The notes: generated by a model not told the origin, from the letters alone. 64,000 nucleotides of DNA from an uncultured virus (IMG/VR IMGVR_UViG_3300035670_009001) (IMGVR_UViG_3300035670_009001); one strand, 5' to 3'. Shown: positions 16,145 through 64,000, counted from the first letter of the stretch. A program made the numbers and translations.

Positions 16145-18643
16145 TTATACTATGGGTCCGAAGTCACAATTTACCACAACGGTGATACAAGTGACATTAG
16201 TTGGGTTATTTGCATCTCTCAAACCAAAATAAACCGTACCATTCGGTACGTAGAGATAATCTTTAGAGGTTCCATTAATAAAATTAAACGCTCCGTTTAA
16301 TGCTTCATTACAAGTTAAATAATAAGTGTCCGTCATGTCATACTGACCTGAACCACCGGCAATACCTGTAATAAATACAGAGTTAATGCCTCCGAACCCA
16401 CAAAGTACATTAGATGTCGCAACCAATGGTTTGGATGGTACATTACCTGTTGAACTAAAGTTCACACTATTACTATTAATAGTATTTGATGTTGTGTCAG
16501 AAATCACCGCACAACATCTACATCCATTAATACTTGCTTGAGTAAACTGAGCATTTATTTGTTGTTGAAGATTAGTTATACAGTTACTTTGATATCCAGT
16601 TTGTCCACTTGTAATTGACAATACAGATGTACTGGTTATTAGTACTGGAGAATTCTGTCCAATTTGTAGTTGGTAAGTATCCGCTTCGGTTACCGCAGTG
16701 AATGTTTCAGGACTACAATTTGGCCTTCCACCAGTTTGAACTATTGTCTGAGTCGTTGTTGGAGTTTTGGTAACACCATTCTCAGTTATAGAGAACGTAT
16801 CAGTAATTAGTCCTGTACCAGGCCCATTATAAGTTTTTATTGACGATATTGTTAAATTAAATGGTATTGTAATTCCTGGAGGTAATGGCGGAGTACTTAC
16901 AACTTGATAATATGTCGTGCGAGAATTGTAATTACTCAAAGAAATAGTTTGAGTGGCTAAAGTATTAGCACTCAAGGATAATTGATAAGTCACAGGTTGT
17001 TCGTCAAATGCAACTGTAATAGTTTCAATATCAGTATTTCCAGCAGAGTCTCTCACAGTAATCGTATATGTTCCGGCGCACAAGTCTTCAAAAACATTTG
17101 TCGATTGATAAGTAGAACCTCCATTAATTGAGTATAGATAAGGAGGATATCCATATTGAGAGTTAACTGTTATATCACCATCACAATTAGCGGTACTATC
17201 ACATGAGTTATTGTTCACCGACAAACTCACTTGCAGTGGAATTACAGGAGGGCAAACACCTTGAGTCATGGTTACACTATACATATTTACTCCACCTGCG
17301 ATAATCCATCCTGAAAGTGGAACTGAAGCTGAAGATGTGCTAATGAATATCCCTCCTCCAATAGGATTAAACGGTATCGTCGGATTAGATCCAGTAATTT
17401 CCCATCTTCCGATTGTAGAGTTCCAAACAATATTGTATTGTCCATCTACAGTTGTCCAAGTTGTTCTACCGTTTCTTAATCCATTACAGTTAAATTGTAG
17501 TGGACCATAAGCGGTTGAAGTTCCAATCGCAATCAAGCACAATTGAGGACAAACACCTGATGGAGTAACTGTCGGAGTTGCAGTTGGACTCGGAGTAATA
17601 GTTTGTGTCGGAGGGAATAGACTACAAACAGTAGTTGCAGTGTAATCTCCGTAGTAGTCAACAACGGTAACTTGATAATTCCCTTGAGGTATCCCTACCA
17701 AAGTTTGCGTTCTTTGTCCTCCATCCCAAAAAATAGAATAAGGACTTGTCCCTCCAGTGATCTTCAAAGATAAAATACCGTCCAAAGAGGTAGAGGAACT
17801 TGGAACTGATACTGGAAAACAACTTACTCCCATATCAAACAGAGTAAATACATCACAATTATTTCGTAATGAAAAAACTTGACTGTTAGTTGGTGTTTGG
17901 GTTGGAGTTCTAGTGACAACGGGGGTCGATGAACTAGTCGGGGTTATAGTGGGAGTAATGGTGTTCGTAGGAGTCGTGGTAGGTGTTTGAGTTGGGGTTG
18001 GTGTTGGGCAACTTACCGAAGAAGTCACATTCAACTTTACGACTCCATTAGATGGCTTAGTATAATCCATTGTGATGGACAATCCACTTTCAGTCCCTTG
18101 TTGGAATACTCCGCAACAATCCGTATAAAAATATGTACTACCTGGATTTACGGATGTGAATGCTTGCCCACAGAGAATTGGAGTTTGTGATGGTGTGGCA
18201 TTCGGAGTTCGAGTTTGGGTAGGTGTTGCGGTTGGTGAGGATGTGATAGTTGGAGTAGGCCTCGGGGTTCGAGTTGGTGTAACAGATGGGGTTTGAGTTG
18301 GAGTATTTGACGGAGTTTGTGTTGGAGTTGAAGAGGGTTCAGGTGAAACTGCCGGATAACAATCAGAATTTTCAGTACAAGGATTTTCAGTATCTATTGT
18401 TATAATACCTTCGGGTAAAAATATATCACCAAAAAAACCATATTTGAAATTTGGAGTGTTTCCCAAGAAAGAACATACATAAAATACTAAAGACCCGCCA
18501 GATACTATACTAGGCAGTATTCCTGTATTAGCATTTTGTTCATTACCATTACAATCGGTATAAACAATATATAGTTGTTCTCCTCCACTCGTTAATAACT
18601 CGAAGGGTACTTCAATATAGACACAGGTACAGGGTGATGACAT
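16145..18643 (-). CDS. Thr/Pro-rich, Cys-rich probable virion fibre/decoration protein with SprB-like beta repeats
   Basis: TPTQTP tracts; ITGGTSPYSIFW..G.Y.VTV.D and GYPPYLYSINGG..L.AGTY.ITVRD repeats; no signal peptide. Confidence 0.65.
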   Translation of the reverse strand: MSSPCTCVYIEVPFELLTSGGEQLYIVYTDCNGNEQNANTGILPSIVSGGSLVFYVCSFLGNTPNFKYGFFGDIFLPEGIITIDTENPCTENSDCYPAVSPEPSSTPTQTPSNTPTQTPSVTPTRTPRPTPTITSSPTATPTQTRTPNATPSQTPILCGQAFTSVNPGSTYFYTDCCGVFQQGTESGLSITMDYTKPSNGVVKLNVTSSVSCPTPTPTQTPTTTPTNTITPTITPTSSSTPVVTRTPTQTPTNSQVFSLRNNCDVFTLFDMGVSCFPVSVPSSSTSLDGILSLKITGGTSPYSIFWDGGQRTQTLVGIPQGNYQVTVVDYYGDYTATTVCSLFPPTQTITPSPTATPTVTPSGVCPQLCLIAIGTSTAYGPLQFNCNGLRNGRTTWTTVDGQYNIVWNSTIGRWEITGSNPTIPFNPIGGGIFISTSSASVPLSGWIIAGGVNMYSVTMTQGVCPPVIPLQVSLSVNNNSCDSTANCDGDITVNSQYGYPPYLYSINGGSTYQSTNVFEDLCAGTYTITVRDSAGNTDIETITVAFDEQPVTYQLSLSANTLATQTISLSNYNSRTTYYQVVSTPPLPPGITIPFNLTISSIKTYNGPGTGLITDTFSITENGVTKTPTTTQTIVQTGGRPNCSPETFTAVTEADTYQLQIGQNSPVLITSTSVLSITSGQTGYQSNCITNLQQQINAQFTQASINGCRCCAVISDTTSNTINSNSVNFSSTGNVPSKPLVATSNVLCGFGGINSVFITGIAGGSGQYDMTDTYYLTCNEALNGAFNFINGTSKDYLYVPNGTVYFGLRDANNPTNVTCITVVVNCDFGPIV

Positions 18644-18705
18644 CTTTAATTTTAGTATATCTTATAATTATAACAATCGAGAATATTTTGTATATATATT
18701 TGAAT

Positions 18706-19353
18706 TTATGGACAGGTTACAAAATCAATTATAGTCCCCGTTGTGTCAACTTGGACTGCGTAATCATTTCCTCCGAAAGTGAATTTTGTGTAATTATTGT
18801 TCCCATTGTATGGATTAAATAAAGCACCACCAAATGCAGTTTGGAATATTTTTACACCAATTACAGGCATCGTATCAGCTTCATTAATGTAGGTGTAATA
18901 ATACAAAAATGTATAAGAGTCACTACACACTAAATCGGAAGTTGGGAATGTATTTTGACCTCTTTGATGAAGCGAGAATGCTGGTGTAACTGAAGGTGTT
19001 GGAGTGAAAGTTGGAGTAGTGGTTGGAGTGTTTGTGACCGTAGGGGTTACACTTAAAGTAGAAATTGGAGTTTTAGTTGGGGTGGGCGTATTGGTTGGTG
19101 TCTTAGTTACCGTAGGTGTTACATTTGAGGTTGGTGTTGGAGTTATGTAAATTATTTCTCCGTCAATACAATTATTATTATCTTCTATTTTTATAACAAT
19201 ATCTGTCTCATCATATGGTGGTGGGACAGTGAAGGTGTAAGGAAAAACTGAAACAGTTGCTACAGAAACACAATCACCACTCGAAGAATTACAATAGAAT
19301 ACCTCGACTGGTGTATTAGCGGTGACCGAATTTATGGTTACTTGTTGACTCAT
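18706..19353 (-). CDS. Thr/Pro-rich probable virion protein
   Basis: N-terminal module shared with 19366..20778, followed by a TPT tract. Confidence 0.6.
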   Translation of the reverse strand: MSQQVTINSVTANTPVEVFYCNSSSGDCVSVATVSVFPYTFTVPPPYDETDIVIKIEDNNNCIDGEIIYITPTPTSNVTPTVTKTPTNTPTPTKTPISTLSVTPTVTNTPTTTPTFTPTPSVTPAFSLHQRGQNTFPTSDLVCSDSYTFLYYYTYINEADTMPVIGVKIFQTAFGGALFNPYNGNNNYTKFTFGGNDYAVQVDTTGTIIDFVTCP

Positions 19354-19365
19354 ATCTATGGAATT

Positions 19366-20778
19366 TTAGGTTGAACTTGGTGTTGGTGTTATAGTCGGCG
19401 TAATAGTTGGTGTCGGTGTCGGCAACAAACAATTCATCAGTGTTCCAAAAGGATTCAAAAATGCAATATCATTCACCTCATATCCATTATATTCACTAAA
19501 TTCACCGAATACAACGTGTACGCCATTTCTCAAAATAATTCCAGTGTTAAAAGTGTTTGCCGAAAAAACTAAACCAGTACCGTAATTGAATGACTCATCA
19601 ACACTACCATCCGAATTTAATTGTATTAGTCCCTCAGCTGAAATTGAATTGTAAGTATCAAAGTCACCTATCACAAAATATTTATCTGAGTATTTAATAA
19701 CCGTCGTTGCATATGATAATCCGCTAAATCGATAAAAACCTGTGTTTGAATCAAAAGTATTATCAATCGATCCATCACTATTCAATCTCACAATCTTTCC
19801 AGCTGTTTGTCCATCATATTCAAAAAATGCACCGACAACTACTAATTTATTACCATCTAATAATCCTGAGGATGCCACTCCATTAAATCCACTGCCGCTA
19901 TTAAATGAATTATCAATAGACCCGTCGTCATTCAATCTAATGATTCTACTGTGTGAATTTCCATCGAATAGTGTAAATCCTCCCAATATTATTATTTTAC
20001 CATCTGATTGTAATAGAATATCATATACAGTATTATTGAATCCAGTACCGATTGTGAATGAGTTATCTACACTTCCATCACTATTTAACCTTATCAAATC
20101 TTTGTAAGGAATTCCGTTGTACTGTGTGAATGCACCACCAACTAATATTTTACCATCAGTCTGAACTTTGATAACATAAACCACTCCATCAAATCCAGTT
20201 CCAGTATCGAAAGTATTATCAAAAGTCCCATCATTATTTAGTCTGGCAATTTTTTCAGTTGGTGTACCATCGTAAAAACTAAACAATCCTCCTAATAATA
20301 TTTTTCCGTCACTTTGTAATTCTACATCGAAAACAACATTATCAAATCCTGTTCCGACATTAAATGTCTCGTCAATGCTAGCATCACTATTTACTCTGAC
20401 AATTCTATTGAACGGAAGTCCACTGTATGTTGTAAATTCCCCTACAAAAATAATTTTATCATCTTGGTCTTCGATAGCCGCCTCAGCTTGATTATTGAAT
20501 CCACCGTTGAAACTATAACAATAATTCCAAGGTGTTGGTGTCGGTGTAACAAAGAAACTTACCGAACTTGTACCAGAAATTATACAGTCATTTGCGTCAA
20601 TTGCCTTTATCATATAATTCGCAGATGTGTCATTAGGGGCTGGTATATCAAACACATATGGAAATGATGAATCCGTTATTGTTGATATATAAAAGCAACC
20701 CGATCCATCTACCTGACAAACATAAATGTCATACGGAGTTTGTCCTGAAATATCGTTTATTGTTACTTGTACTGCCAT
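19366..20778 (-). CDS. delta-60 (DUF5122-like) beta-propeller repeat protein with TP tracts
   Basis: repeated Q.DGKIL.GG.F..Y.G.....RLN.DGS.D..F..GTGF units. Confidence 0.85.
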   Translation of the reverse strand: MAVQVTINDISGQTPYDIYVCQVDGSGCFYISTITDSSFPYVFDIPAPNDTSANYMIKAIDANDCIISGTSSVSFFVTPTPTPWNYCYSFNGGFNNQAEAAIEDQDDKIIFVGEFTTYSGLPFNRIVRVNSDASIDETFNVGTGFDNVVFDVELQSDGKILLGGLFSFYDGTPTEKIARLNNDGTFDNTFDTGTGFDGVVYVIKVQTDGKILVGGAFTQYNGIPYKDLIRLNSDGSVDNSFTIGTGFNNTVYDILLQSDGKIIILGGFTLFDGNSHSRIIRLNDDGSIDNSFNSGSGFNGVASSGLLDGNKLVVVGAFFEYDGQTAGKIVRLNSDGSIDNTFDSNTGFYRFSGLSYATTVIKYSDKYFVIGDFDTYNSISAEGLIQLNSDGSVDESFNYGTGLVFSANTFNTGIILRNGVHVVFGEFSEYNGYEVNDIAFLNPFGTLMNCLLPTPTPTITPTITPTPSST

Positions 20779-20790
20779 ATCATATTTTTT

Positions 20791-23700
20791 TTAACATTGT
20801 ATTGATGATAAACCGATTACTACTCCTGACCCATTCAAATCCCAATTCGCACCTTGGTGGAATACATATATTTCACTTACCACAGTTATCAATGTGGAGT
20901 CGTCATATAATATACATCCAGGGTTTATTTCGGTGCAATTAGAATATAATGTTTTAGGGTTGATGATTGCATCAGAACAAGCATCTCCCACACTTATATT
21001 ACTAACTCCACTGTTTCCAAATGTACCGATATTGGCCGTCGCACATGTGACACAATCAGTAAAGGTTTGACTTGGAACTCCTGTAAAATAGTTACCTCCA
21101 AAATTAATTGGAGTAACTCTTGGAGGTGAAATGTAGCTACTATTAAATTGTCCAACATAATACCAGCAATTTCCATCGTTGTCTTTGAAGACCTCATTAA
21201 CAGCAATTATGAAAGAAACTGGTTGTGTCTGAATGACTTGAGTTATTGAGCCTCTTCCTCCACCAATTGCGTTACAAGATTGATAAACATACAGGAAATT
21301 AGGTGTTGCTGATGGAGATGCTGTTATAGATGGTGTAGGTGTATTTGTAGCTGTCGGAGTTCTAGTCTGAGTTGGTGTAGGTGGAGGTGTGGTACCATTT
21401 GTCGCAGTTTGTGATGGTGTTGCGGTTTGGGTTGCAGTCACGCTTGGTGTAATACCGGCAGTTGATGTTGGGGTATTTGTTGGTGTTGAAGTTACGGTTG
21501 GTGTTGGAGTTGGTATTGTACTACAGAATTCACAAGAAGAATAAATTTGTACAATGTCCCCAAGATTACTGTTAGATGACAAGTTATTATCGTCTCTTGT
21601 ATATACAACACAACGATTTATACCATTGACTTGAACGAACATGGTCATACCAATCAATACAGGTGTTCCTGCAAATGATAATGAATCATTAGTATAGAAT
21701 TCCTCACCTGTGTTACAATCAGTTAATACTTTTACAGATACACAACTGAAGGTTTGGTCCATTAGCTCGAAAGATACACTACCTCCAATAGATACAGTTC
21801 TCGTTAATGTTACCGAAGGAGTTAAGGTTACAGACGGAGTGGTTGGAGTATAACCACTTAAAATAAAATCTAAACCCAATCCAACACAAACATTTGTAGG
21901 TGTTTGTGATGGTGTTGGAGTAACCCCGATAGAACTAATTGTAAAATTAACATCATCACATGCAATACTTGGAGTTGGAGTTGTTGGTGGAGTGTAAGCA
22001 CAATCAAAATAAGCTTCAAAATCGAACGTAGAACAATCCACTCCAGTTGGTGTCGGTGTCGGACAAATTCCTCCAACAAAATCATTTGCAGATATGTCAG
22101 GACACGCAGAATAACATGGATTAGAACCTCTTAGCAAACAAGCTCCGTCCAAAATATCACTCAGACACCAAAAGTCTCCTGTGTAATAAATTACCGCAGA
22201 AGTTACTCCATCCCCAGAGAAATAATTTCTACCGTTGTGAGTACCAGCCAACTCGTAGTTTCCATTGTAACCTGAAAAAGATGGTAAAGTCGTGTAAAAA
22301 CAAAAATCAGTAAATGCACATGCTGAAGGGGAAGGGGATATTGTTGGAGTTTGTGTCGGCGTAGGTTGCGGTGTATTTGTTGGAGTTGGAGTAGGGACGC
22401 AAAATGTACAATCATCATAATCAGGATCATTGAGGTCTGGTCCTCCTGGTCCTGAAAATTCGACAAAGCTATAACACTCTCCATTATGTAAATACGCGGC
22501 TCCAAAAAACGCAGTATCTTCTCTTACATTCGCATAAAATACACTACCATCGGAACACTTATATAATAGTGCCGCCACATTAGATTCGGTTGGGCATATC
22601 GCATCCGCACATCCCGAAGCAGTCTGTTGGAAAGTATAGACCCCTCCATCATACAGGGGTCCTGTACCTGTGGTATTAACAACAGTTGCACATCCTGAAA
22701 ATTCAGTCCCCCCACTTATATAATAAACCGCCCCCATATTTAGGGTCATCGGTATATCAAAAAACCTAAATATGTTTGAACTGTTAGTACAATCTTGAAA
22801 CTGTACTGTATATCCCGGTGTTTGTGTTGGAGTTGGAGTTTGTGTTGAAGTCGATGTGTTTGTAGGTGTTTGGGTTGAGGTGTTTGTAGGGGTCTGTGTT
22901 GGTGTTGAAGTCGATGTGTTTGTAGGTGTTTGTGTTGGTGTTGAAGTCGATGTGTTTGTAGGTGTTTGGGTCTGTGTAGGTGTTTCAGTTGGGGTCTGTG
23001 TAGGAGTTTGCGTTGTTGTGTTTGTGGGAGTTTGTGTAGGTGTTTCAGTTGGAGTTTGAGTTGGAGTTTCTGTTGGAGTCGCGGTACTTCCGATTGTGGC
23101 AGTCGGAGTCTGAGTTGGAGTTTCTGACGGGGTTTGCGTTGGTGTTTCAGTTGGAGTTGATGTAGGGGTTGGAGTTGGGGTTGGGGTTTCTCCTATTGTA
23201 GGAGTTGGAGTTGGAGTAATTCCTTCAATACATCCACCACTACAGAAACTCTCGTCGACTTGAATTATAGTCAACCCTGGCGTTGCCGAATAGCTTCCTA
23301 TAATCGCACAAAAATAAGCAGCCGGTGCACCAAATGGTACGTTATCAATCGATTGGGGGACATGATTACAATCTGAATATGTTATTGTATTACTCCCCGA
23401 CGGCTCACCTTCATTAGTATATTGGTAACAAACACAATTATCTACAGGTGTCGGAGTTGGTGTACTAGTCAATGTTGGCGATGGTGTCATTACTTCACAA
23501 TCCATTAAATCCGTTATCGAACCTCCAGTAATTTGAATTGTTACACCAATCGAAGTTCCCGAGTCGCTTTTATACCAATTATTCCCTACAACTCCTTGCC
23601 ATACTACGGTATATCCTGAATCACCATAAACAGTACTACCCGAGGTATATGCTTCACTCCAAGTAGATGGTGCAGGAGAACCAGAAAAATATACAGTTGC

Positions 23701-23793
23701 ACCAGTATAGGGAACTGATTCACATGCTAACGTGGACCCACTCCATCCTTCTAAGTCAATGTCTTTGTAAAAAAGTTGTAGAGTACTTGGCAT
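20791..23793 (-). CDS. large mucin-like Thr/Pro-rich, Cys-rich probable virion protein
   Basis: several long TPT[QN]T tracts separating small Cys-containing domains; no signal peptide. Confidence 0.65.
22843..22968. repeat. 30-nt exact repeat, three copies, inside the TPT tract
   Basis: tgttgaagtcgatgtgtttgtaggtgtttg at 22843, 22903 and 22939. Confidence 0.85.
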
Positions 23794-23811
23794 AAAATTT
23801 TTGTCTTACAA

Positions 23812-23899
23812 TATAAATAACCAGATTATTGGTTTTTGTTATTCCCATAATATAGTTTTCCAAAAAAGGAAATAAAGCAAGTTCATGATAATATTTATA
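23812..23899. promoter_or_regulatory. divergent intergenic region with TATTTATA on each outgoing coding strand
   Basis: tataaata at 23812-23819 (TATTTATA on -) and tatttata at 23892-23899 (+). Confidence 0.5.
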
Positions 23900-23904
23900 A
23901 GTGT

Positions 23905-24075
23905 ATGAAACTTATAAAGACAATCGAAAAAATAATTCAAGAAGCAGAGGAACAATATAATTTAGCCTGTGAATCATGTGTACCAGTTGAAGAATTAGAC
24001 CGACTCGAAAAACATTATAAAGATTCACTAAAACTTATGAAGCTATATAAGTCCGAACAACGTTCTAAAAAATAA
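23905..24075 (+). CDS. small protein, 56 aa (MKLIKTIEKIIQEAEEQYNLACESCVPVEELDRLEKHYKDSLKLMKLYKSEQRSKK), not in the ORF track
   Basis: translated by hand; TATTTATA 5 nt upstream. Confidence 0.6.
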   Translation: MKLIKTIEKIIQEAEEQYNLACESCVPVEELDRLEKHYKDSLKLMKLYKSEQRSKK

Positions 24076-24121
24076 CTTTTTTTAATAGATTTTACCTCAT
24101 TCTTTCATATATTTTACCAAT

Positions 24122-25063: not shown

Positions 25064-25064
25064 G

Positions 25065-54671: not shown

Positions 54672-54674
54672 TTA

Positions 54675-55847: not shown

Positions 55848-58009
55848 ATTATGCCTAATTTTATTTGATTTAGTAATGATAGTATTTCTTTATAATTATT
55901 CATACTATCCCCATCAAAAGTGTACTTAAATGTAACCATTTGAAGATAATTCACTCTATTATGTTCACAAATTTCGTACATTTCATTTCTAATCTGTTTT
56001 AATTCATCAACCGTCTTATTTTTAAATTTTTCGATTTCAGTTACTATCATCTCTGACCTAATATTTATTTCTTCTTCATTGTCATAACTTTCATCAAACC
56101 ATTTGTCAAAAGTTTTAAACCCAAATTCTTTTAGTTTTTTAAGTACCCCTTTATTACCTAATACCATAAATGGATGACCGAGAGATATAGGTTTCCATAT
56201 TTTTTCAGATAAAAAAAGAGTATACTTATCTGTTAAACTTTCAGTCACAATCGAAATAAATGTATCTTCGTGATCTTGAATAGAAATCTCATTTGCCCAA
56301 TTATATTCTAACCCTCTATCAATTTCAATTGGGGCTCTTTTTTGTAACTCATTGATTGGGTGGTCGTCAGGTAAATTTTGAAAATACTGAAATTGATTCA
56401 AACTCACTTTACCAAAATCTAACAAATTTTTTGATAAAATATTAGATAAAAAATGTATTCTGTGGAATCTCACATTCCTATTGTAAGATAAATACAAAAA
56501 TTTATCGTCTTTTGGATTGAATGGGATTGATTCGGTTCTGTCTCTCATTACGTGATAATTAACCCAATTATCGAAAATTGAAATCGGGACACACTTAAAT
56601 TCCATCCCTTTTCTTTTTGCAATTTCATCGATAATTAAATTACCACTTAATAAGAAAACAAATTTTGGTGGAATATCCAATTCTTTTATCCAAGAATTTA
56701 ATATTTCTAAATCATTATTATTTTCACATCCAATATAACCTTCCAAACCATTTACTAAAACCAATTTACATAATCCTGATTTTATATCATTCATATATTT
56801 TTCTGAAATACACTTGAATCCAATTTTTTCGTTTCTTGTAAAAAAGTTAGGGTCAAAAATATTTATAAGATAAATGTATGTTTTATCATTTATTTTTTCT
56901 TTTTCTCTGAAATCCACAAATTCTTCATAAAAATTTGGAGCCACTTGGTCTTTATATGTACCGTATCCGAAAAGTTTATAGTTACTATTCACATCCATTA
57001 AATTCCACACCCCCCACATTTTGGGAATATCTAGTCTACCTTCTTCTTCCAAATACCAAGTTCTACTCGACCCATTTGGTCTTGGACAACCTAATATCGA
57101 ATCATATTCTTCTAACCCAAAGACAAGTTTTTCTTGAAAGAATATCTCGTATATACCCCTTTCCAATAATTTTGGTGTAAAGTTTAAAATATTTTTTTCT
57201 AACCTATCAAAGTTAACGTAATAAGATCTAAATTCTAAACCATCGTCCACAAAATCCACATCAATTTTTTTATTTATTGATTGTTCAATTTTATTTATTA
57301 ATTGTGCTTTAGTTATATTAAATTTATTGTAACCAACATTTATTACCTTGGTATCTATATTTTCTACACATAACCTGAAAATGATTTCAGCACAGTCTTT
57401 CACATTTAAATTTGGCCGATAAGCTTCTGGTTCATATATTTGAATTTTTTTGTTGTTCTTGACATCGTTCACTATATTATTAATCAACAAATCATCCCTT
57501 TCGATAATTCCCAAACCATATAAAGTCGCCAATCTTACAATTAAATAATTTTTTATGTTCGAGTTCAAAATTTGTTTTTCCCCCTCTATTTTCAATTTAG
57601 AGTACATTGTGGTTGGTATCAATTCAGTGTTTTCGTCAACAACATTATTAGTATTCCCATAAACACTACAACTGCTAAAAAACATTAATTTGTAATTCGG
57701 TGATACCTTACTAATACATCTTAATGTGTGGTCCATTAATAAAATCTCTGAAGTAATATGTAAGTCATCTCTAACTTCACTAAACCTTGGTGATGCCATA
57801 TACAAAACACAATCAATGTTTTGAAATTTATCCAAGTGATTTGTTATATTTGTAAGGTCATCCTTAATATATGTTACATTTTGCCGATTTTCATTCACAT
57901 TCCAATACTTAAACGTATCATAAACTATAACTTCTTGTCCTCTTTCAGAAATTAACTCGGACAATACACTACCGAGATATCCACCACCGCCTAATAATAA
58001 AAATTTCAT
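55844..58009 (-). CDS. fusion of an NAD-dependent epimerase and GT10-like paralog 6
   Basis: GGGGYLGS, SSCSVYG, YSKLK, RLAT.YG; C-terminal YNR..RFHR..SIVTES..LSEKIWKPI..GHPF..FGFKTF. Confidence 0.75.
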   Translation of the reverse strand: MKFLLLGGGGYLGSVLSELISERGQEVIVYDTFKYWNVNENRQNVTYIKDDLTNITNHLDKFQNIDCVLYMASPRFSEVRDDLHITSEILLMDHTLRCISKVSPNYKLMFFSSCSVYGNTNNVVDENTELIPTTMYSKLKIEGEKQILNSNIKNYLIVRLATLYGLGIIERDDLLINNIVNDVKNNKKIQIYEPEAYRPNLNVKDCAEIIFRLCVENIDTKVINVGYNKFNITKAQLINKIEQSINKKIDVDFVDDGLEFRSYYVNFDRLEKNILNFTPKLLERGIYEIFFQEKLVFGLEEYDSILGCPRPNGSSRTWYLEEEGRLDIPKMWGVWNLMDVNSNYKLFGYGTYKDQVAPNFYEEFVDFREKEKINDKTYIYLINIFDPNFFTRNEKIGFKCISEKYMNDIKSGLCKLVLVNGLEGYIGCENNNDLEILNSWIKELDIPPKFVFLLSGNLIIDEIAKRKGMEFKCVPISIFDNWVNYHVMRDRTESIPFNPKDDKFLYLSYNRNVRFHRIHFLSNILSKNLLDFGKVSLNQFQYFQNLPDDHPINELQKRAPIEIDRGLEYNWANEISIQDHEDTFISIVTESLTDKYTLFLSEKIWKPISLGHPFMVLGNKGVLKKLKEFGFKTFDKWFDESYDNEEEINIRSEMIVTEIEKFKNKTVDELKQIRNEMYEICEHNRVNYLQMVTFKYTFDGDSMNNYKEILSLLNQIKLGII

Positions 58010-58010
58010 A

Positions 58011-59021
58011 TCAATCTCTTAATAATTCCGTTGTAACACAGTGAAATGATCCACCCAAAGTTCTAGAGTGTCTTATTTTACAATCCAATGTGTCAATATT
58101 ATGTTTTTTTAATTCTTTTATCAAATCTTTTTGTCTGTTGTCGACAATTACAGTATTTTCATCAACAGATAATAAATTAACACCAATCCAAACAGACGCC
58201 CTTATCGTTTTATGATACCCAATATCAACCATAGGTGGACACCATATTTTATCCCATGATTTCAAAAAATCAGGTATGTTATTTTCATTTACTCTTTCAG
58301 GATTTAACAAACAAAGCCCTTCACGTAATAATGCAATTGTTGAATCTATGTGGATATAAGAATATACGTTTTCGATTGTATGTACCCTATATTCTTTACC
58401 TAGAAAATTTTGTAACCATTTGGCACCCTTTAAATTACCAGTATTAGAAACCAAATACAATATATCATTATTACATCTAAGTATATTAGCTGCATCAAAA
58501 ACAGGCTCATCATTATTCAATGTAATTTTAGTTAAATCATCTCTTTGATACATTGAATCTAACAATCTTGGTTTAGGAGCACTAACCCAATTTGCACCTT
58601 CTTCCATTTTTTTTATAAAAATATCCTTAAAAGAATCGGTTTCAAATTGTCTAGATCTGAGAGACATGGGAGATTCTAAAATATTATTCCCGATTACAGT
58701 TACGGTATCTCGTGGACAAAATGTATAATACTGTGTTGTTTCCCAATAACCATTGGAGACTACTTTTTGTGTATCAATTGGAGATGGTCTGTGTACCTTC
58801 ACCCCAATGTTAGTCAATAAATTAGAAAGATTTTCTAAATCTTCTTGTGTCTCATCATAAACCTGTTTATCCCAAAAACCAATTTCATTTTTTGGTATCT
58901 CAGTTTCAGTCGCATAGTTAATACAGTGTAAATCTTTACCGTGAGTAGGCATGTTGGCATTATCAATTGTACCAACAATTATTTCCTTTAATTTACCCCA
59001 TTCATTATTAACTGAAACCAT
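58011..59021 (-). CDS. amidinotransferase (glycine or inosamine-phosphate amidinotransferase family)
   Basis: NEW..L.E.IVG, CPRD, FDAAN, N..G..WL, HIDST, GGSFHC. Confidence 0.9.
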   Translation of the reverse strand: MVSVNNEWGKLKEIIVGTIDNANMPTHGKDLHCINYATETEIPKNEIGFWDKQVYDETQEDLENLSNLLTNIGVKVHRPSPIDTQKVVSNGYWETTQYYTFCPRDTVTVIGNNILESPMSLRSRQFETDSFKDIFIKKMEEGANWVSAPKPRLLDSMYQRDDLTKITLNNDEPVFDAANILRCNNDILYLVSNTGNLKGAKWLQNFLGKEYRVHTIENVYSYIHIDSTIALLREGLCLLNPERVNENNIPDFLKSWDKIWCPPMVDIGYHKTIRASVWIGVNLLSVDENTVIVDNRQKDLIKELKKHNIDTLDCKIRHSRTLGGSFHCVTTELLRD

Positions 59022-59862
59022 TTGAATTTAACTTTTTAATCAAATATTTTATTACTATATCTTGCGAATCTTTACCATTGTGCCCACAATCTCGGGCTTT
59101 ACTTTGACTATCGTCAATTACATTTATCAAATCAACATTATTAGAAATAAATGATTCTTTATACATCATTTCGAAATCAGTAGAATAACTCCAATGTAGA
59201 ACTTCGACTCCCGCAGATTTCCAAATTGAATCTACGGTCATTGGGTTAAAATTACTATTTTTTATCAATTCTCCGCAATTTTCTAAATAACTATGGTGAT
59301 ACCATTTACCATATTGTAATGGGCTTTCAGGATAATATTCTTCAATTCTAGCTCCCGAAAATGTTTCGAATTCCATCCCATCATATCCATCTGTCTTGAA
59401 TGCATATACTGTTCTGTATGTTGCAGGCCATTGATAAACCACCAGCTTAGGTAATTTTTTTAATTTTAAAATATGGTTAAAAAATAAAATTGTGTTATAC
59501 ATTTGAAAATCAGAACTTGTCCCTCCGGCCCCCAAATTAAAAATATCTAAATCTAAAGACTTAGATAACTTAGTGGACCACATATCGTCATAATGTAACC
59601 CAACTCCTTCAGTATATGAACACCCAAATGTTAATAGATAATCTTCATCTAAATCATCGAATTCTTTTGTCCTGTATCCCCATGAATTGTATTTATATTC
59701 AATTTCATTATCATAATAATACCAATCGGAGCCTTTTTCTTTCTTGTTTTTAAGATAAAGTTCTTCATAATCCGTAGAATGAAAGTATAATTTTTTGTTA
59801 ATTAATCCATAATTTATTATTATAGGGCATTCATTTGTAATTCTGAAAGTTGACATTTCCAA
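59008..59862 (-). CDS. SGNH-like protein
   Basis: YNSWGYR, FGCSYTEG, NLG.GG, RDCGH; start codon uncertain. Confidence 0.65.
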   Translation of the reverse strand: MEMSTFRITNECPIIINYGLINKKLYFHSTDYEELYLKNKKEKGSDWYYYDNEIEYKYNSWGYRTKEFDDLDEDYLLTFGCSYTEGVGLHYDDMWSTKLSKSLDLDIFNLGAGGTSSDFQMYNTILFFNHILKLKKLPKLVVYQWPATYRTVYAFKTDGYDGMEFETFSGARIEEYYPESPLQYGKWYHHSYLENCGELIKNSNFNPMTVDSIWKSAGVEVLHWSYSTDFEMMYKESFISNNVDLINVIDDSQSKARDCGHNGKDSQDIVIKYLIKKLNSNGFS

Positions 59863-61739
59863 TATCTATTTTTTCTCTGATAATGATATGATGTATGATA
59901 AAAAGTTTTTTCGTCAAATTTTACCCCACTATCATAGTGATTCAAATATAACAAAGTTTCTCCTGAATTTAAACAATACTTTAAAGTATCTTTTGAATAC
60001 TTTTTAGTTATAGGATATGAAATTCTATAGTCAAAACACATGTCCATGTTTAATTGGACTACGTCTTCCAAATCCATATTAAACTCTTCATTGACAAATT
60101 TTAAAAATTCTTGACGTAAAGTTTCTCTGTTTTGATGGAAAACAATACTTGTAGCACTTTTGTACTCCCAAAATATGTCATTTTCACCCAATACTTGTCT
60201 ACCCCAAAACCCATTATTATAAAATACAGACTTCAAAGATTCATCCGTTTTTTTTATTTCAGACCCTATCAAAGTTTCGGGATTATTAGTAAAATACCAC
60301 AACATTTTTTCAATTACATCAACATGTTTGTATCCATGTTTATTAAAAAGGTATTCTAAAAGATAATGGCCCCACCCATAGTAATATAAAACAATCAATA
60401 AATGTGAAAATGAATGCCCTTTGAAAACGTCCTCTTCACTTGCAGTGTTTGTTTCCTTAACCCCCCAAGTATGTTCCACAATATAGTTTTCCAAATCCTC
60501 AACACTTAAATAAAACGTATCTAAAGGGACGGTTTCATATTTTAAACCATGTTTTTCCATATACCATGGTTGACCCATAGTGGCATTGTAGGTTAAAACT
60601 AGTGGATGAACCATCAAAAAATCTTTTTGTCCTAAATCAATTAATTTTTGGATTCCAATTTTTAATGTATCATAGGTTTCATTTGGCATTGGCCAAATTA
60701 ATTCACTATAAGTAGAAATATTTTGTTCCCTATATTTTTGTAAATAAGAATATACTTTATCTTGTTTTAAATTAAATCTATTGGTCGCTAGTAATGTATC
60801 AGTGTTGAAACTTTGCATTGCAAACGTAATCCCCTTAAAAAGTCTACTTTTAGCCTCATTGTCCATGACAGCAATTTCATATATTTGTTCAACATTTGAT
60901 TTAGCCCACGTTACATCCCAAAATTTGGGGTATCCTGTCTCTAACTTTTTTTGAATGACGTACCTCGTAATGTCTTTGTCTCTTTCCATCATACCCCAGT
61001 TTGAGTCACAAACACTAACATATTCAATTTTTTTATCGGACATCCAATCTATTTCACTATACACTCTTTCTAAATCAAATGTTTTAATTTTTTGCCAATA
61101 TTCATCACCAATATCACAAAAAGCACATTTATATGGGCACCCTCTCAGGGTTTCATATGTCACCTGCCATATTTGGGGTCCAATCTCTTTTTCAACTTTT
61201 TCAATAATCCAATCATAAAATCCGGAAAGTATTGGGCTTGGTATTATTTCTAAATTATTTAATCTTGATGGTAGATCACATAATTTTCCACTTTTTGGAA
61301 ACACATGTGGTATGTTATCATAATTTTCATTTTTTAGATACCTTTCTAAAATTTCTTTAAATGCAATTTCACCCTCTCCAAGAACCGCGATATCGAACAT
61401 TTCATTTTTCTTAAAGAAGTCCACGTCTCTTTTATCAACATTTGGTCCTCCAGTAATAATTAAACAATTAGGATATTTCTTCTTTATTTCTTTAGATAAT
61501 TCTCGATTGTAATTCCAATTCCATACATAACTACTTAGGGCTACAACATGCGGTTCGAAATCAATACTTTCAACGTATTTTTTTGGTGATTTTTTTTCAA
61601 TGATTACATCCGAAACCCTGAAATTTTTTTTTACCATTTCACTTGTCTGCGCGTACATCCATTGATAACTGATAGCAAGTGGTAAAAAACTATTAGGTCC
61701 GTATTTATCAACGACCTGCACCAATAGTAAATTATTCAT
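59820..61739 (-). CDS. B12-binding radical SAM enzyme
   Basis: PLAI, SSYVWN, GGP, GEGE, ET.RGCPYKCAFC. Confidence 0.9.
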   Translation of the reverse strand: MNNLLLVQVVDKYGPNSFLPLAISYQWMYAQTSEMVKKNFRVSDVIIEKKSPKKYVESIDFEPHVVALSSYVWNWNYNRELSKEIKKKYPNCLIITGGPNVDKRDVDFFKKNEMFDIAVLGEGEIAFKEILERYLKNENYDNIPHVFPKSGKLCDLPSRLNNLEIIPSPILSGFYDWIIEKVEKEIGPQIWQVTYETLRGCPYKCAFCDIGDEYWQKIKTFDLERVYSEIDWMSDKKIEYVSVCDSNWGMMERDKDITRYVIQKKLETGYPKFWDVTWAKSNVEQIYEIAVMDNEAKSRLFKGITFAMQSFNTDTLLATNRFNLKQDKVYSYLQKYREQNISTYSELIWPMPNETYDTLKIGIQKLIDLGQKDFLMVHPLVLTYNATMGQPWYMEKHGLKYETVPLDTFYLSVEDLENYIVEHTWGVKETNTASEEDVFKGHSFSHLLIVLYYYGWGHYLLEYLFNKHGYKHVDVIEKMLWYFTNNPETLIGSEIKKTDESLKSVFYNNGFWGRQVLGENDIFWEYKSATSIVFHQNRETLRQEFLKFVNEEFNMDLEDVVQLNMDMCFDYRISYPITKKYSKDTLKYCLNSGETLLYLNHYDSGVKFDEKTFYHTSYHYQRKNRYWKCQLSELQMNAL

Positions 61740-62418
61740 TTATAAAAACAGTATTCAATCTTAAATCTTTATAACTTTTATGACTGTGGGAGTCATCATT
61801 AATTTCAGATATTTTACTCATAAGAATTAGACCCCTCGCAGCGTCCTCTGGTGTCATATACATGTGCCAACCACAAAATTCAATATCATCATTCATATAG
61901 TTTTTTTCTAAATTACGTCCATCATAACAAGCTTTTTTGAACCATTTATACGCTTCATAATCATCACATAAAATCGCGCCTCCTCTTCCAATCGGTAGTC
62001 TTTTTTTCATTTGAAATGACAATGCTTGAAATCCACCTTGGTACATTCCTTTTGTCCACCTTCCCGCTCCGTCCCAAACGTCAAGCGGGTTTAATTTATA
62101 AACTCCTGACCATTCACTTTCGATGAATTCAAATTCATAACCCGCATGTAAAATTTGCATCGGTACTGATGCATATGTATGATATGGTATTTTTAATTTT
62201 TGTGGTTTATTTATATATTTTAAAATAAGAAAAAGAGCATTACTACAACAATCAACCGCAACCGCGTATTTAGATCCACAAAAATTAGCGATCTTAGATT
62301 CAAAAATAGAAACTATCTCATTTGGATTATTCCAACAATATCCCATTTTTAAAATTTCTTTTAATTCTGGTCTTTCTAGCTCTTCTGGTAATTGCCCTAA
62401 TGGCCACTCTTTGTACAT
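61732..62418 (-). CDS. short DegT/DnrJ-family PLP aminotransferase
   Basis: FE..IA.F.GSKYAVAV, SFQMKK.L.IG.GG.IL. Confidence 0.8.
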   Translation of the reverse strand: MYKEWPLGQLPEELERPELKEILKMGYCWNNPNEIVSIFESKIANFCGSKYAVAVDCCSNALFLILKYINKPQKLKIPYHTYASVPMQILHAGYEFEFIESEWSGVYKLNPLDVWDGAGRWTKGMYQGGFQALSFQMKKRLPIGRGGAILCDDYEAYKWFKKACYDGRNLEKNYMNDDIEFCGWHMYMTPEDAARGLILMSKISEINDDSHSHKSYKDLRLNTVFINE

Positions 62419-62419
62419 T

Positions 62420-63466
62420 TCAAATCATTGTTTCTAATACTTTTAGGTATTTGTCCTTGATTGTTTTTCGCCAATCATCAGTAACGAATACACTTTCTTT
62501 TTTTGTATAATTTTCAGCGAAATTTGACCAAGTCGATGTGGGTACCTTTACCAAAAAAGAAGTATATGATAGTGAAAATAAATCGACTAAATTTTCAATA
62601 ACATTACCGTAAACAAAATCACTTTTTTTGAATCCTGAATTCAAAATATAGTCGTAAACAACATTTAAAATGAAAGTCTTATCTACTAGATTATTTTTAT
62701 ATTTTTTGTAAAAATAATCCATAATTTCATCTGGTACATCCGTACTAATATAAAATTTTTGATTTGGATTTATTTTCAACATATTATCCATAATGTTAAA
62801 ATATAAAATGTCTCTATGAAATGAGTATGTTGAATTTGATTGTTCCGTTATTACTCTTTTAATTAAACTAAATTTATCTCTTTTATTTTCAGGAAGACTA
62901 TTTAAATCATCTGTAGTATATGGTATCCCATTACCTCTTCTTATATGAATACCAACAACATTTTTCATTTCATTAATAATGGACTCTTCAACACTCTTAT
63001 GTTTTAGTTTTATTTTGGACAAAGGCCTTTCTATTTTTTCAAAGTCTTTTTTAGTATATAAATTTGTTAATTCTCTATACCCAAAATTACTATAATAATG
63101 ACCTTTATCTTCGAGTTTAAATTCATTATTTTTAAACATTTTTTCTATGTCATTGGTATATAATGGAGTTGCGGTATTTATCTTTTTATTAATTGTATCG
63201 TACACCGCAATGAATTTTAATTTTTCAACTTCATGTGGGTCTCCCTCAATATTTGTTATTGTTTTTGTTGTTGGTAAATCCAATAATTTATTTTCAGGCC
63301 AATATTTTTCTTCTAATAAAATATAGTATTTAAAATCATTTTTTCGATTGATTTCATACGCCACCTCCCAATGTAATATTCTATTACAGAGTCCCGTATC
63401 TGTTGTAAATCCGTTCCAACCTCCAAATGGCTCTGGCCATCGTAATGTTCTTTCGTATTCCGCCAC
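62420..63466 (-). CDS. fucosyltransferase-like (GT11/NodZ-type) glycosyltransferase
   Basis: GL.NR, VGIHIRRG, FYISTD, DLFSL, STWS. Confidence 0.7.
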   Translation of the reverse strand: MAEYERTLRWPEPFGGWNGFTTDTGLCNRILHWEVAYEINRKNDFKYYILLEEKYWPENKLLDLPTTKTITNIEGDPHEVEKLKFIAVYDTINKKINTATPLYTNDIEKMFKNNEFKLEDKGHYYSNFGYRELTNLYTKKDFEKIERPLSKIKLKHKSVEESIINEMKNVVGIHIRRGNGIPYTTDDLNSLPENKRDKFSLIKRVITEQSNSTYSFHRDILYFNIMDNMLKINPNQKFYISTDVPDEIMDYFYKKYKNNLVDKTFILNVVYDYILNSGFKKSDFVYGNVIENLVDLFSLSYTSFLVKVPTSTWSNFAENYTKKESVFVTDDWRKTIKDKYLKVLETMI

Positions 63467-63470
63467 CTAA

Positions 63471-64000
63471 TTATTTTTTTATAAATTGATTATACTTTTT
63501 CTTTATTTGAGTTTCCCATAATTCATCTACACGGGATGAAAGATTATTTTCTTTCCAATCCGCAAAATCGGACCATGTAGAATGTGGTACTTTGATAAGA
63601 TACCCACAATAAACCAATGAGAATAAATCAGAAACAGTTTGCACAATACTCCCATTTAAAATTTCGTGTTTTCGATAACCCGCATTGTGTAAAAATGTTT
63701 GAACCGTATTGTAAATGTGTAAATTATCTATTAAATTATAACCATATTTTGTTCTATAATATTGCATAATTTCATGAGGTAAATCACTACTAATATAAAA
63801 CTTTTGATTTGGATTTATTTTTAACATATTATCCATGATATCAAAATAAAAACTATCATCATAAAAAAAACAATTATCACAAGTATCAACCGTATATTGA
63901 TTTTTGAATAATCTAACCTTTTCCCTTACCTCTCTTGGAAAAGTTTCATAATTTTTTTCATTCAGGTATATACCATTTCCTCTCCTAATATGTACCCCAA
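63471..64000 (-). CDS. 3' part of a paralogous fucosyltransferase-like gene (extends past the window edge)
   Basis: frame is open upstream of the tracked ATG (GVHIRRGNG...); MDNMLKINPNQKFYIS is shared exactly with 62420..63466. Confidence 0.75.
   Translation of the reverse strand, partial: GVHIRRGNGIYLNEKNYETFPREVREKVRLFKNQYTVDTCDNCFFYDDSFYFDIMDNMLKINPNQKFYISSDLPHEIMQYYRTKYGYNLIDNLHIYNTVQTFLHNAGYRKHEILNGSIVQTVSDLFSLVYCGYLIKVPHSTWSDFADWKENNLSSRVDELWETQIKKKYNQFIKK

Follow-up and report, generated by a model that had tools for sequence, protein, structure and literature searches.

A candidate phage-encoded protein-glycosylation system beside Thr/Pro-rich proteins in an uncultured freshwater jumbo myophage

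The 64,000-nucleotide stretch of viral DNA analysed here (IMGVR_UViG_3300035670_009001; hereafter the window) carries a long array of sugar genes next to a set of Thr/Pro-rich proteins, and the question it raises is what these enzymes glycosylate. The window is part of an uncultured freshwater jumbo myophage lineage of roughly 326 kb, whose host probably belongs to the Bacteroidota; its phage origin, proposed from the sequence alone, was borne out by its relatives, among them a complete syntenic genome (G001; CheckV 100%). The preferred reading, with a probability of roughly 0.55, is that the region encodes a cytoplasmic protein-glycosylation system whose acceptors are phage appendage proteins, and at about the same level it would represent a credible large-scale variant of phage virion glycosylation. 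Since soluble sugar genes and a relative of a protein glycosyltransferase stand beside Thr/Pro proteins, the phage probably sugar-coats its own particle. The ORF map placed four tandem minus-strand ORFs at 16145-23793, with a further conserved gene behind them and a plus-strand glycosyltransferase operon (24122-29665) running the other way:

13932-16118, minus strand: 728-aa conserved protein without assigned function, last gene of the Thr/Pro array
16145-18643, minus strand: 832-aa Cys-rich multidomain protein with Thr/Pro tracts
18706-19353, minus strand: 215-aa protein with an N-terminal domain of ~65 aa, a 58-aa (T-x)n tract and a C-terminal domain
19366-20778, minus strand: 470-aa protein with the shared N-terminal domain, a DUF5122/delta-60 beta-propeller and a C-terminal Thr/Pro tail
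20791-23793, minus strand: 1000-aa protein with eight Thr/Pro tracts (33% of its length) and 4% Cys
23794-24121: divergent intergenic region of 328 bp between the Thr/Pro array and the transferase operon
24122-25063, plus strand: 313-aa GT9-family (heptosyltransferase-like) glycosyltransferase (PF01075, E = 1e-13)
25065-28994, plus strand: 1309-aa multidomain transferase (PF04230, PF13692, PF00534, TIGR04414)
28991-29665, plus strand: FkbM-family methyltransferase (PF05050, TIGR01444), last gene of the operon

The sequence-only reading had described four tandem Thr/Pro-rich proteins without signal peptides, divergent from a glycosyltransferase operon. The divergent layout was confirmed, and neither a hydrophobic N-terminal segment nor a signal peptide was found in any of the four ORFs from hydropathy and inspection of the N-termini; three proved strongly Thr/Pro-rich, the 470-aa ORF being mainly a beta-propeller with short tracts. 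The 832-, 215- and 1000-aa ORFs contain 16-20% T and 9-10% P, with 48, 25 and 118 TP/PT dipeptides and (T-x)n tracts over 15%, 27% and 33% of their length, respectively. The tracts of the 832-aa ORF occupy residues 100-155, 207-255 and 342-364; this protein also showed a weak match to the Ig-like BiPBP_C family (Pfam) and, as a lead only, resembled viral SprB-repeat proteins in the ESM Atlas (score 0.79). Besides its propeller (PF17164, E = 2e-69; TIGR02608), the 470-aa ORF has a short TPTPTP stretch after the N-terminal domain and, by the tract criterion, one 22-residue C-terminal tract (residues 449-470, 5% of its length); the N-terminal domain is common to it and the 215-aa ORF (37% identity, E = 2e-12). 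Degenerate 12/24/36-nt tandem repeats lie at 22842-23188, within the 1000-aa ORF. Matches to PHROGs were restricted to families of unknown function (phrog_15511 and phrog_21885 for the 215-aa protein, phrog_15511 for the 1000-aa protein), and no structural PHROG or Pfam match was found for the Thr/Pro ORFs or the 728-aa protein. The latter has 561 viral relatives, no match in Pfam, PHROG, NCBIfam or PDB and only viral hypothetical clusters as matches in the ESM Atlas; Thr/Pro inserts are present in its distant homologues, and it is a candidate particle protein. Both AF2 models were unusable, with pLDDT values of 50 (the 728-aa protein) and 45. The Thr/Pro and 728-aa proteins would sit on the virion, and the Thr residues of the tracts would be the glycan acceptor sites; Thr/Pro linkers can also be simply flexible spacers.

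The largest enzyme of the operon carries part of the evidence for protein as the acceptor. Its domains were assigned as a pyruvyl-transferase (residues 372-515), a GT4 transferase (about 770-900) and a TibC/Aah-type protein O-heptosyltransferase (976-1306), the N-terminus being unassigned. The last of these scored 281.7 bits with TIGR04414 (E = 8e-84) against a curated equivalog cut-off of 200, followed by 275.8 bits for the orthologue in the complete relative and 253-271 bits for five enzymes from other lineages; it was the only transferase domain to pass a curated equivalog cut-off, and the family concerned glycosylates proteins. Alignment with TibC (4RAP) gave an E value of 6e-52. The LGD motif with the catalytic Asp aligned with L108-G109-D110 of TibC (phmmer, residue numbers counted by hand), and the iron-finger residues Cys339, Cys342, Cys358 and Cys370 were all identical (CxxC...WCP...EC). 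By sequence the domain belongs to the TibC/Aah family. In the published account of TibC, D110A is the catalytically inactive form, and each of the four Cys residues is needed for activity (PMC4358343). The alignment started only at residue 62 in the N-terminal barrel of TibC, and the beta-hairpin thumb region (TibC about 255-285, with Phe265/Val266) contained several gaps and was ~10 residues shorter, which makes a dodecamer doubtful for the phage enzyme. Bacterial autotransporter heptosyltransferases (BAHT; TibC/Aah, TIGR04414, PDB 4RAP/4RB4), which the domain thus resembles in family score, catalytic Asp and iron finger, are described as soluble cytoplasmic enzymes that glycosylate one protein many times over (PMC4358343). 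The phage version differs in being the C-terminal domain of a multi-enzyme protein without an autotransporter substrate; no autotransporter family was found in Pfam scans of the window or of 265 proteins of the complete relative, and the enzyme may work like BAHT on a different kind of protein. With regard to ADP-heptose, the donor in BAHT, the complete relative encodes a split HldE-like pair that is absent from the window; the kinase scored 113.6 bits and the adenylyltransferase 105.8 bits, neither reaching its equivalog cut-off.

From the operon, a minus-strand array of sugar genes extends to the end of the window and runs off it:

29662-38020, minus strand: tailoring block with an SGNH/GDSL-like protein, a twitch radical-SAM enzyme, two PF13640 2OG oxygenases, a Hint/intein-like 761-aa protein and several unknowns
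31683-32249, minus strand: sulfotransferase-like lead within the tailoring block
38167-49397, minus strand: nucleotide-sugar modification block with a carbamoyltransferase, an E1-like TPP enzyme pair, an RmlC-like epimerase, a PhyH dioxygenase, a 4,6-dehydratase, two Fcl-like SDRs and a DegT/RfbH-like PLP enzyme
49427-64000, minus strand: further island genes, with DUF5672, a GDSL-like protein, three unknown ORFs of 410-444 aa, an NDP-sugar dehydrogenase, an SDR fusion, a KedN5-family B12 radical-SAM C-methyltransferase, a DegT-like fragment and unknowns

An island of at least 40 kb with more than 30 sugar genes had been proposed. The length was a fair estimate (39.9 kb in the window), and the block at 49427-64000 is syntenic with positions 1-14852 of G001, where sugar genes go on for ~12 kb beyond the point matching the window end. 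The gene count was too high: among the 37 ORFs in 24122-64000, 18 matched sugar-nucleotide, transferase or tailoring families (14 clearly, 4 weakly), 4 were generic 2OG/PhyH oxygenases or radical-SAM enzymes, and 15 had no informative match or an unrelated one (Hint). The soluble island enzymes would turn host nucleotide-sugars into modified donors, presumably 6-deoxy, amino, C-methyl, carbamoyl and branched sugars; the sugars of the 38167-49397 block cannot be named, because all matches were below the NCBIfam equivalog cut-offs. The carbamoyltransferase, the KedN5-family methyltransferase, the E1-like TPP pair and DegT resemble antibiotic sugar-tailoring enzymes, and the product might be a soluble secondary metabolite bearing sugars, for example an aminoglycoside-like or deoxysugar compound. 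This is very improbable in view of the many transferases, the placement of the island within structural genes in the complete relative and Pfam scans of the window that found no scaffold-forming enzyme (PKS, NRPS, cyclitol synthase). Hypermodification of DNA, with sugars placed on phage DNA bases for restriction evasion, is comparably remote. Phage transferases can glycosylate DNA (cited in PMC12619734), and several DNA methylases are encoded by the complete relative, but its only thymidylate-synthase-fold protein scores above the equivalog cut-off for canonical ThyA (311 bits vs 108), no hydroxymethylase or DNA-glucosyltransferase family was found in Pfam and PHROG scans of that genome, and the scale of the island and its protein-type transferases fit such a role poorly.

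The association of transferases with Thr/Pro ORFs, which the sequence-only reading had proposed to follow across related phages, was maintained in the relatives. Thr/Pro-rich ORFs were present at 74 of the 79 loci around the 728-aa gene. Of 22 close relatives, 16 had the GT9 gene divergent to the Thr/Pro array, and the other 6 had <2 kb on that side. In the more distant relatives (26 in number, 47-57% identity) the gene was abutted by a Thr/Pro ORF in 12 (8 on the same strand just downstream, 4 divergent) and by an ORF carrying the shared N-terminal domain in 3 more. The two thus abut in three different arrangements, and their adjacency survives rearrangement. A second transferase shows the same neighbourhood. 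PF11397, which we take to be the GT60 family, was absent from Pfam scans of the window and was found in the complete relative at 94550-95869, outside the region that the window covers (226 bits against a gathering score of 21), where a second Thr/Pro cluster immediately precedes it. Wherever a related locus offered 3 kb or more of upstream sequence, in all 53 cases, a Thr/Pro ORF lay just before this gene; these loci are not independent because they represent one lineage at 83-100% identity. In bacteria a single GT60-like locus was found (54% identity), and it had no Thr/Pro neighbour. The PF11397 protein of the complete relative had no PDB match. Characterised GT60 enzymes, the protist polypeptide alpha-GlcNAc transferases, are described as initiating O-glycosylation at mucin domains rich in Thr/Ser or at hydroxyproline in the cytosol (PMC8724618), and the position of the phage gene behind Thr/Pro ORFs, together with the PF13640 2OG oxygenases of the island, recalls both the mucin-type initiation and the Skp1-hydroxyproline pathway, with the difference that the gene belongs to the relative's genome and that phage members are known by sequence alone.

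Outside the lineage, the TibC-like enzymes keep other company. Of the 41 such loci that had 4 kb or more of downstream sequence, 32 had a collagen-like ORF within 5 kb, against 0 of 79 control loci around the 728-aa gene, and PHROG annotation gave tail fibres as neighbours in 6 of 7 annotated loci, picked from 80, the seventh lying between capsid and sheath genes. Of 60 TibC-like loci outside the lineage, only 3 contained any Thr/Pro ORF, and these ORFs are small, so the TibC-like enzyme is not generally tied to Thr/Pro tracts; since its neighbours in other lineages are collagen-like rather than Thr/Pro proteins, the acceptor may be fibres in general. Protein glycosylation might accordingly be aimed at collagen-like tail fibres or other particle proteins, with the Thr/Pro tracts as unglycosylated, protease-resistant spacers between binding domains. 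The complete relative does have two collagen-like fibre genes, one at the island border, the other within the second Thr/Pro cluster, and the characterised TibC is described as modifying Ser in folded beta-helix repeats, not Thr-Pro tracts (PMC4358343). This alternative was nevertheless judged unlikely: no collagen-like ORF was found in the window, the GT9 gene adjoins Thr/Pro ORFs in three arrangements, the GT60-type gene follows such ORFs without exception in this lineage and belongs with enzymes reported to begin mucin-type chains (PMC8724618), and the Thr positions of the 215-aa protein's tract were invariant in 15 homologues (44-76% identity) while the residues between them varied.

In the preferred reading, soluble transferases would link glycans straight to phage appendage proteins and lengthen them there, in the cytoplasm and before assembly or lysis, by means of the TibC/Aah-type domain and the GT9 enzyme of the window and the GT60-type polypeptide transferase encoded elsewhere in the relative's genome. 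The likeliest acceptors would be the neighbouring beads-on-a-string proteins with (Thr-x)n tracts, and by analogy collagen-like tail fibres are likely acceptors too; the glycan would then gain methyl, pyruvyl and acyl groups, and possibly sulfate, as decorations. Shielding, adhesion and mimicry are conceivable roles of such a coat. The virion O-glycosylation of mycobacteriophages reportedly involves a few transferase genes only. The likeness lies in phage-encoded transferases acting in the cytoplasm on the phage's own structural proteins, as is proposed here from genes; the phage described here differs in its 40 kb or more of genes for sugar synthesis and tailoring, in the BAHT- and GT60-type enzymes and in having dedicated Thr/Pro-tract proteins. 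Mycobacteriophage capsid and tail-tube subunits are described as glycosylated at their C-termini (Freeman et al. 2023, cited in PMC12619734). Giant viruses (Mimivirus/Megavirinae and chloroviruses) are likewise described as having their own pathways for rare decorated sugars and transferases that act on particle fibrils independently of the host machinery (PMC10117803, PMC8456856, PMC9614988), and in Mimivirus collagen is paired with collagen-modifying enzymes (PMC9546862). Those are eukaryotic viruses, in contrast to the tailed phage studied here, and the likeness drawn here is one of gene roles.

The claim that soluble enzymes glycosylate phage proteins in the cytoplasm is supported in part, by the TibC/Aah domain, the conserved adjacencies, the collagen-like fibres near TibC-like enzymes in other phages and the lack of export genes in the complete relative. 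As had been noted for the window, Pfam scans found no Wzx, Wzy, ABC or initiating-transferase family there, and the enzymes look soluble, no ORF having two or more membrane segments predicted by hydropathy, a crude method. The search for export and lipid-carrier genes was extended beyond the window, as the sequence-only reading had suggested: six-frame searches of G001 detected none of PF02397, PF00953 and, for flippase and polymerase, PF01943 and PF04932, each of which was detected in 10-13 of 14 control genomes (10 and 12 for the initiating phosphoglycosyltransferases PF02397 and PF00953), and 0 of its 382 ORFs had more than 4 membrane segments by the same crude hydropathy method. O-antigen and capsule clusters (Wzx/Wzy- or ABC-dependent) resemble the island as large, variable, low-G+C blocks of nucleotide-sugar and transferase genes, as do the cyanophage 'LPS' gene islands, but the window and the complete relative lack an initiating phosphoglycosyltransferase, flippase, polymerase, chain-length regulator and exporter.

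The enzymes might instead remodel the host envelope, modified nucleotide-sugars and peripheral transferases acting on host lipid-linked intermediates (LPS core, O-antigen, capsule), which is rather unlikely. It would be equally unlikely that host initiating enzymes, flippases and exporters are used, as a phage could do, with the Thr/Pro genes as chance neighbours, and an altered surface of the infected cell, for example for the exclusion of superinfecting phages, is a purpose of similarly low probability. LPS core synthesis is the best-known setting of the GT9, GT25 and HtrL families, and since its enzymes, too, are soluble or peripheral, missing membrane segments are compatible with this alternative as well. 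The best NCBIfam matches of the GT9 protein were indeed LPS heptosyltransferases, all far below the equivalog cut-offs, and GT25 and HtrL/YibB families occur in the complete relative; a huge-phage preprint also counts glycosyltransferases as envelope-associated, by assumption (10.64898/2026.10.24.761521). Against this, just one transferase domain exceeds a curated equivalog cut-off, and its family glycosylates proteins; the complete relative lacks the export and initiating genes named above; and through rearrangements and in other lineages the transferase genes keep beside Thr/Pro ORFs or collagen-like fibres. In the complete relative, whose head module holds a third Thr/Pro ORF, the island of roughly 50 kb has the Thr/Pro array on one side and, on the other, the genes for a 1706-aa collagen-like tail fibre, a SprB/Hoc-like protein and the baseplate; it is co-oriented and contiguous with the fibre and baseplate genes.

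The plus-strand transferase operon and the minus-strand array were found to be arranged as the sequence-only reading had described them, and the following features of the window were considered:

13932-16118, minus strand: 728-aa protein
16145-23793, minus strand: Thr/Pro array, four ORFs of 832, 215, 470 and 1000 aa
24122-25063, plus strand: GT9 gene
25065-28994, plus strand: 1309-aa enzyme
24122-64000: sugar-gene island of 37 ORFs, comprising the plus-strand operon (24122-29665) and the minus-strand array
35197-37482, minus strand: 761-aa protein with two Hint/intein-like modules (residues ~454-582 and 625-746), its N-terminal ~450 residues unassigned

The 1309-aa protein combines several enzymes in one chain: a pyruvyl-transferase domain is followed by a GT4 domain and then by a C-terminal domain, the last of which scored 281.7 bits (curated cut-off 200) against TIGR04414, the NCBIfam family named for TibC/Aah autotransporter O-heptosyltransferases. 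Apart from this TibC-like domain, no transferase domain in the window attained an equivalog threshold. It aligned to residues 62-386 of TibC (4RAP; E = 6e-52), and the equivalent of Asp110 and all four iron-finger cysteines were identical to those of TibC. The TibC thumb region was shorter in the 1309-aa protein, making a dodecameric ring doubtful. The acceptors of TibC-type enzymes are proteins, not lipids. In a published TibC study, the D110A variant was inactive and activity was lost in each iron-finger Cys mutant (PMC4358343). The enzyme is modular: the pyruvyl-transferase domain (window 25991-26821) was absent from the 1210-aa copy (304520-308152) in G001, a complete syntenic relative of the window's phage; that copy begins with a methyltransferase domain, and versions in other lineages ranged from 673 to 1603 aa.

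The four minus-strand Thr/Pro ORFs reported earlier proved to be real, with strong Thr/Pro richness confined to three of them. Their tracts were strictly alternating, with 72-76% of tract Thr followed by Thr at +2 and 0-8% at +1, Pro being the commonest partner, and the coding DNA consisted of degenerate repeats with units of 12, 24 or 36 nt. The array proteins were Cys-rich (2.3-4.0%), and neither signal peptides nor membrane segments were predicted in them. The 215-aa and 470-aa proteins have in common an N-terminal domain of ~65 residues (37% identity, E = 2e-12) and differ at their C-termini, which are a small domain and a DUF5122/delta-60 propeller, respectively. Phage fibres are usually built of a conserved N-terminal module and swappable distal domains, and the two proteins may be read as having such a fibre-like build; the Thr/Pro proteins are beads on a string. 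The tract of the 215-aa protein was compared in 15 homologues (44-76% identity): its Thr positions were invariant and the intervening residues variable. AF2 models of the 215-aa and 728-aa proteins (pLDDT 45 and 50, respectively) were too poor for fold searches. A sub-threshold SprB lead was obtained in the ESM Atlas for the 832-aa protein; the 728-aa protein matched viral hypothetical clusters alone there and nothing in a PDB sequence search. In distant relatives (loci L036-L079), the 728-aa homologue reached 796-872 aa and carried Thr/Pro inserts (25-38 TP/PT dipeptides), which suggests a functional class shared by the 728-aa protein and its Thr/Pro neighbours.

The long ORFs of the window were all closely packed, the G+C content was 24-41% and no tRNA was found within it. 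Cultured phages gave no DNA-level match to positions 1-16000 (megablast) and no match to the 728-aa protein (tblastn). Matches to the SbcC-like protein were confined to huge uncultured phages and, weakly, Bacillus phages, and the 728-aa protein had 561 relatives among viral contigs, several of them on contigs of 317-326 kb. Among those contigs, G001 (326,291 bp, CheckV completeness 100%) was syntenic with the window over 1-47775 (G001 280883-326291) and 47645-63448 (G001 1-14852). The 131 bp at 47645-47775 matched both its first and last bases, and the G001 record is therefore terminally redundant, as a closed circle or a permuted genome. Its structural genes encode a T4-type major head protein, prohead protease, portal, terminase, sheath, tube, baseplate wedges and collagen-like tail fibres, and the window is accordingly taken as part of a jumbo myophage. 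Further genes of this lineage were:

Window 1-13.9 kb: sigma-70 factor, DenV-like glycosylase, SbcCD, exonuclease, primase, RuvC-like resolvase
G001 161112-163598: SusC-like TonB-dependent receptor
G001 135472-136650: OmpA-domain protein
G001 33125-35260: SprB-repeat/Hoc-like protein

The last three hint at a Bacteroidota host for G001. A Bacteroidota host is also predicted for the freshwater 'moraphages', which were described as having DnaJ, a sigma factor and four core groups of glycosyltransferases (PMC12619734). A 799-aa Eco57I-like methylase or restriction-modification protein was located at window 2846-5245 (minus strand), and the segment around it (~2290-5277), with no counterpart in G001, is likely a recent insertion.

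The association of Thr/Pro ORFs with transferase genes was evaluated in homologous loci. Thr/Pro-rich ORFs were present in 74 of the 79 loci around the 728-aa gene, and the GT9 gene faced the array in 16/22 close relatives; in the remaining six, the sequence on the relevant side was shorter than 2 kb. Among distant GT9 relatives (n = 26, 47-57% identity), a Thr/Pro ORF came next on the same strand at ~60 nt or less in eight, was divergent in four and lay ~1-5 kb away in three; an ORF with the shared N-terminal domain adjoined in three more, and none was seen in eight. A second Thr/Pro cluster in G001 (95.9-102.4 kb) encloses a collagen-like fibre gene; next come genes for a PF11397 protein (226 bits), a GT25 protein and an HtrL-like protein. 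PF11397 is equivalent to CAZy GT60. GT60 enzymes are described as initiating mucin-type O-glycans in protists, where the acceptors are Thr/Ser-rich domains, and as modifying cytosolic Skp1 hydroxyproline (PMC8724618). In every one of the 53 related loci whose upstream sequence reached 3 kb or more, a Thr/Pro ORF ended directly upstream of the GT60-type gene, although these enzymes are 83-100% identical and thus represent one lineage, not independent trials; tract lengths there ranged from 10 to 322 dipeptides. The GT60-like protein had no match in a PDB sequence search, and the only relative found in species-representative genomes (54% identity; 6007-7278 of a bacterial MAG contig, L328) had no Thr/Pro-rich neighbour. 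In G001 the island spans ~50 kb (303.6-326.3 kb plus 0-27 kb), with the Thr/Pro array on one side and, on the other, a gene for a collagen-like fibre of 1706 aa and then baseplate genes, all of them co-oriented.

TibC-like domains were found in 83 viral loci. Outside the window lineage, Thr/Pro ORFs occurred in 3 of the 60 loci kept, and those were small. This speaks against a general tie of the TibC-like enzyme to Thr/Pro tracts. At these outside loci, a collagen-like ORF lay within 5 kb in 32 of the 41 loci with at least 4 kb downstream (within 1.5 kb in 22), compared with 0/79 control loci around the 728-aa gene (1.6 Mb). When 7 of 80 TibC-like loci, picked for diversity, were annotated with PHROGs, the neighbours were called tail fibres in six, and the seventh was situated between capsid and sheath genes. 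The cultured Microcystis phage Mel-JY01 (L247) encodes at 4750-8430 a 1226-aa protein with a TibC-like C-terminus (39.5% identity to the window domain), annotated as 'methyltransferase FkbM' and placed directly after a 'structural protein'. Fibre or structural neighbours across lineages thus tie the TibC-like enzyme consistently to particle appendage genes, and its acceptor class, judged from collagen-like or Thr/Pro neighbours, may vary by lineage.

The count of more than 30 sugar genes was not borne out, as sugar-related family matches were obtained for only 18 of the 37 island ORFs; four others belong to generic oxygenase or radical-SAM families, which leaves 15 unexplained. All nucleotide-sugar enzymes fell below NCBIfam equivalog cut-offs, so the island sugars cannot be named. 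The 2OG oxygenase matched PKHD-type hydroxylases only, and weakly, in the PDB, which makes a prolyl-hydroxylase role speculative. The 761-aa Hint protein, conserved in G001 (314056-316311), is a candidate intein-bearing enzyme or autoprocessing protein. A role of these sugar genes in a secondary metabolite lacks a scaffold, no scaffold enzyme having been found in the window. Additional genes were noted in G001:

213614-214754 and 261021-261461: HldE-like split pair (heptose-7-phosphate kinase-like, adenylyltransferase-like) and APS-kinase-like gene, all below equivalog cut-offs
20262-23128 and 113628-114446: animal-type transferase families, two GT7 (beta-4-galactosyltransferase-like) fused to a ConA-like lectin domain, GT10, GT11 (fucosyltransferase) and Anp1/GT62-like

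The HldE-like pair and the APS-kinase-like gene are possible sources of donors for heptosylation and sulfation.

Regarding export, no window ORF had two or more predicted membrane segments and none of the 382 G001 ORFs had more than four. Lipid-carrier or export families were absent from Pfam scans of 265 G001 proteins, and six-frame searches of G001 yielded no Bac_transf, Glycos_transf_4, Wzx-type or Wzy-type match, each family being detected in 10-13 of 14 control genomes. The search for flippase or polymerase genes beyond the window, which could have redirected the system to host polysaccharide, therefore returned none, in the relative G001 rather than in the window's own genome. The main rival explanation is remodelling of the host envelope via host carriers, which is favored by the LPS-core-type families GT9, GT25 and HtrL and by the fact that LPS-core-type enzymes require no membrane segments. 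Glycosylation of DNA is unlikely, since the sole thymidylate-synthase-fold protein of G001 is a canonical ThyA (311 bits vs 108) and no DNA-transferase family appeared in the G001 scans.

The island is best read as a phage-encoded system for cytoplasmic glycosylation of the phage's own particle proteins, with a probability slightly above one half (about 0.55), every catalytic step of which we infer. Host nucleotide-sugars would be altered by a 4,6-dehydratase, Fcl-like reductases, an RmlC-like epimerase, DegT-type PLP enzymes and a dehydrogenase, and likewise by an E1-like TPP pair, a type of enzyme that in some pathways to antibiotic sugars introduces a branch of two carbons. A B12 radical-SAM C-methyltransferase and a carbamoyltransferase would modify them further, and G001 might contribute the sub-cut-off HldE-like pair and APS-kinase-like gene. 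TibC-type and GT9 enzymes, plus the GT60-type enzyme from elsewhere in the genome, would initiate in the cytoplasm on phage appendage proteins; chain extension would fall to G001's GT2, GT4, GT7, GT10, GT11, GT25 and GT62-like enzymes, and decoration of the chains to enzymes of the FkbM, pyruvyl, SGNH and sulfotransferase-like types. A true particle glycocalyx, with about one fifth of the 326-kb genome devoted to a eukaryote-like mucin- or extensin-type O-glycosylation pathway, is a tentative and rather doubtful extension. In it, enzymes of the GT60 and TibC types would start chains on collagen-like fibres and (Thr-x)n stalks, PF13640 oxygenases might hydroxylate prolines, GT7, GT10, GT11, GT25 and GT62-like enzymes would carry out the extension, and methyl, carbamoyl, pyruvyl, acyl and sulfate groups would then be added; the length-variable tracts, along with the mosaic island, would form a fast-evolving virion 'serotype' locus.

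Glycosylation of phage virions (cited in PMC12619734) and of giant-virus fibrils (PMC10117803, PMC8456856) is already known, and no report of phage TibC-type/BAHT or GT60-type virion systems was found among titles and abstracts. If this phage is confirmed to glycosylate its own particle, the ability to devote tens of kb to complex particle glycans would extend to tailed phages, beyond a few mycobacteriophages and the giant viruses of eukaryotes. How phages in lakes adsorb, stay stable, resist grazing and act as antigens would be viewed anew, and many auxiliary genes that are labelled 'LPS' or 'envelope' in large phages would be reassigned to virion modification. TibC-type and GT60-type enzymes, soluble and able to glycosylate proteins in the cytoplasm, would become available for testing and use in E. 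coli, together with matched acceptor tracts. A direct test of the hypothesis is feasible, as the cultured Microcystis phage with its related TibC-like multidomain enzyme offers a possible test system.
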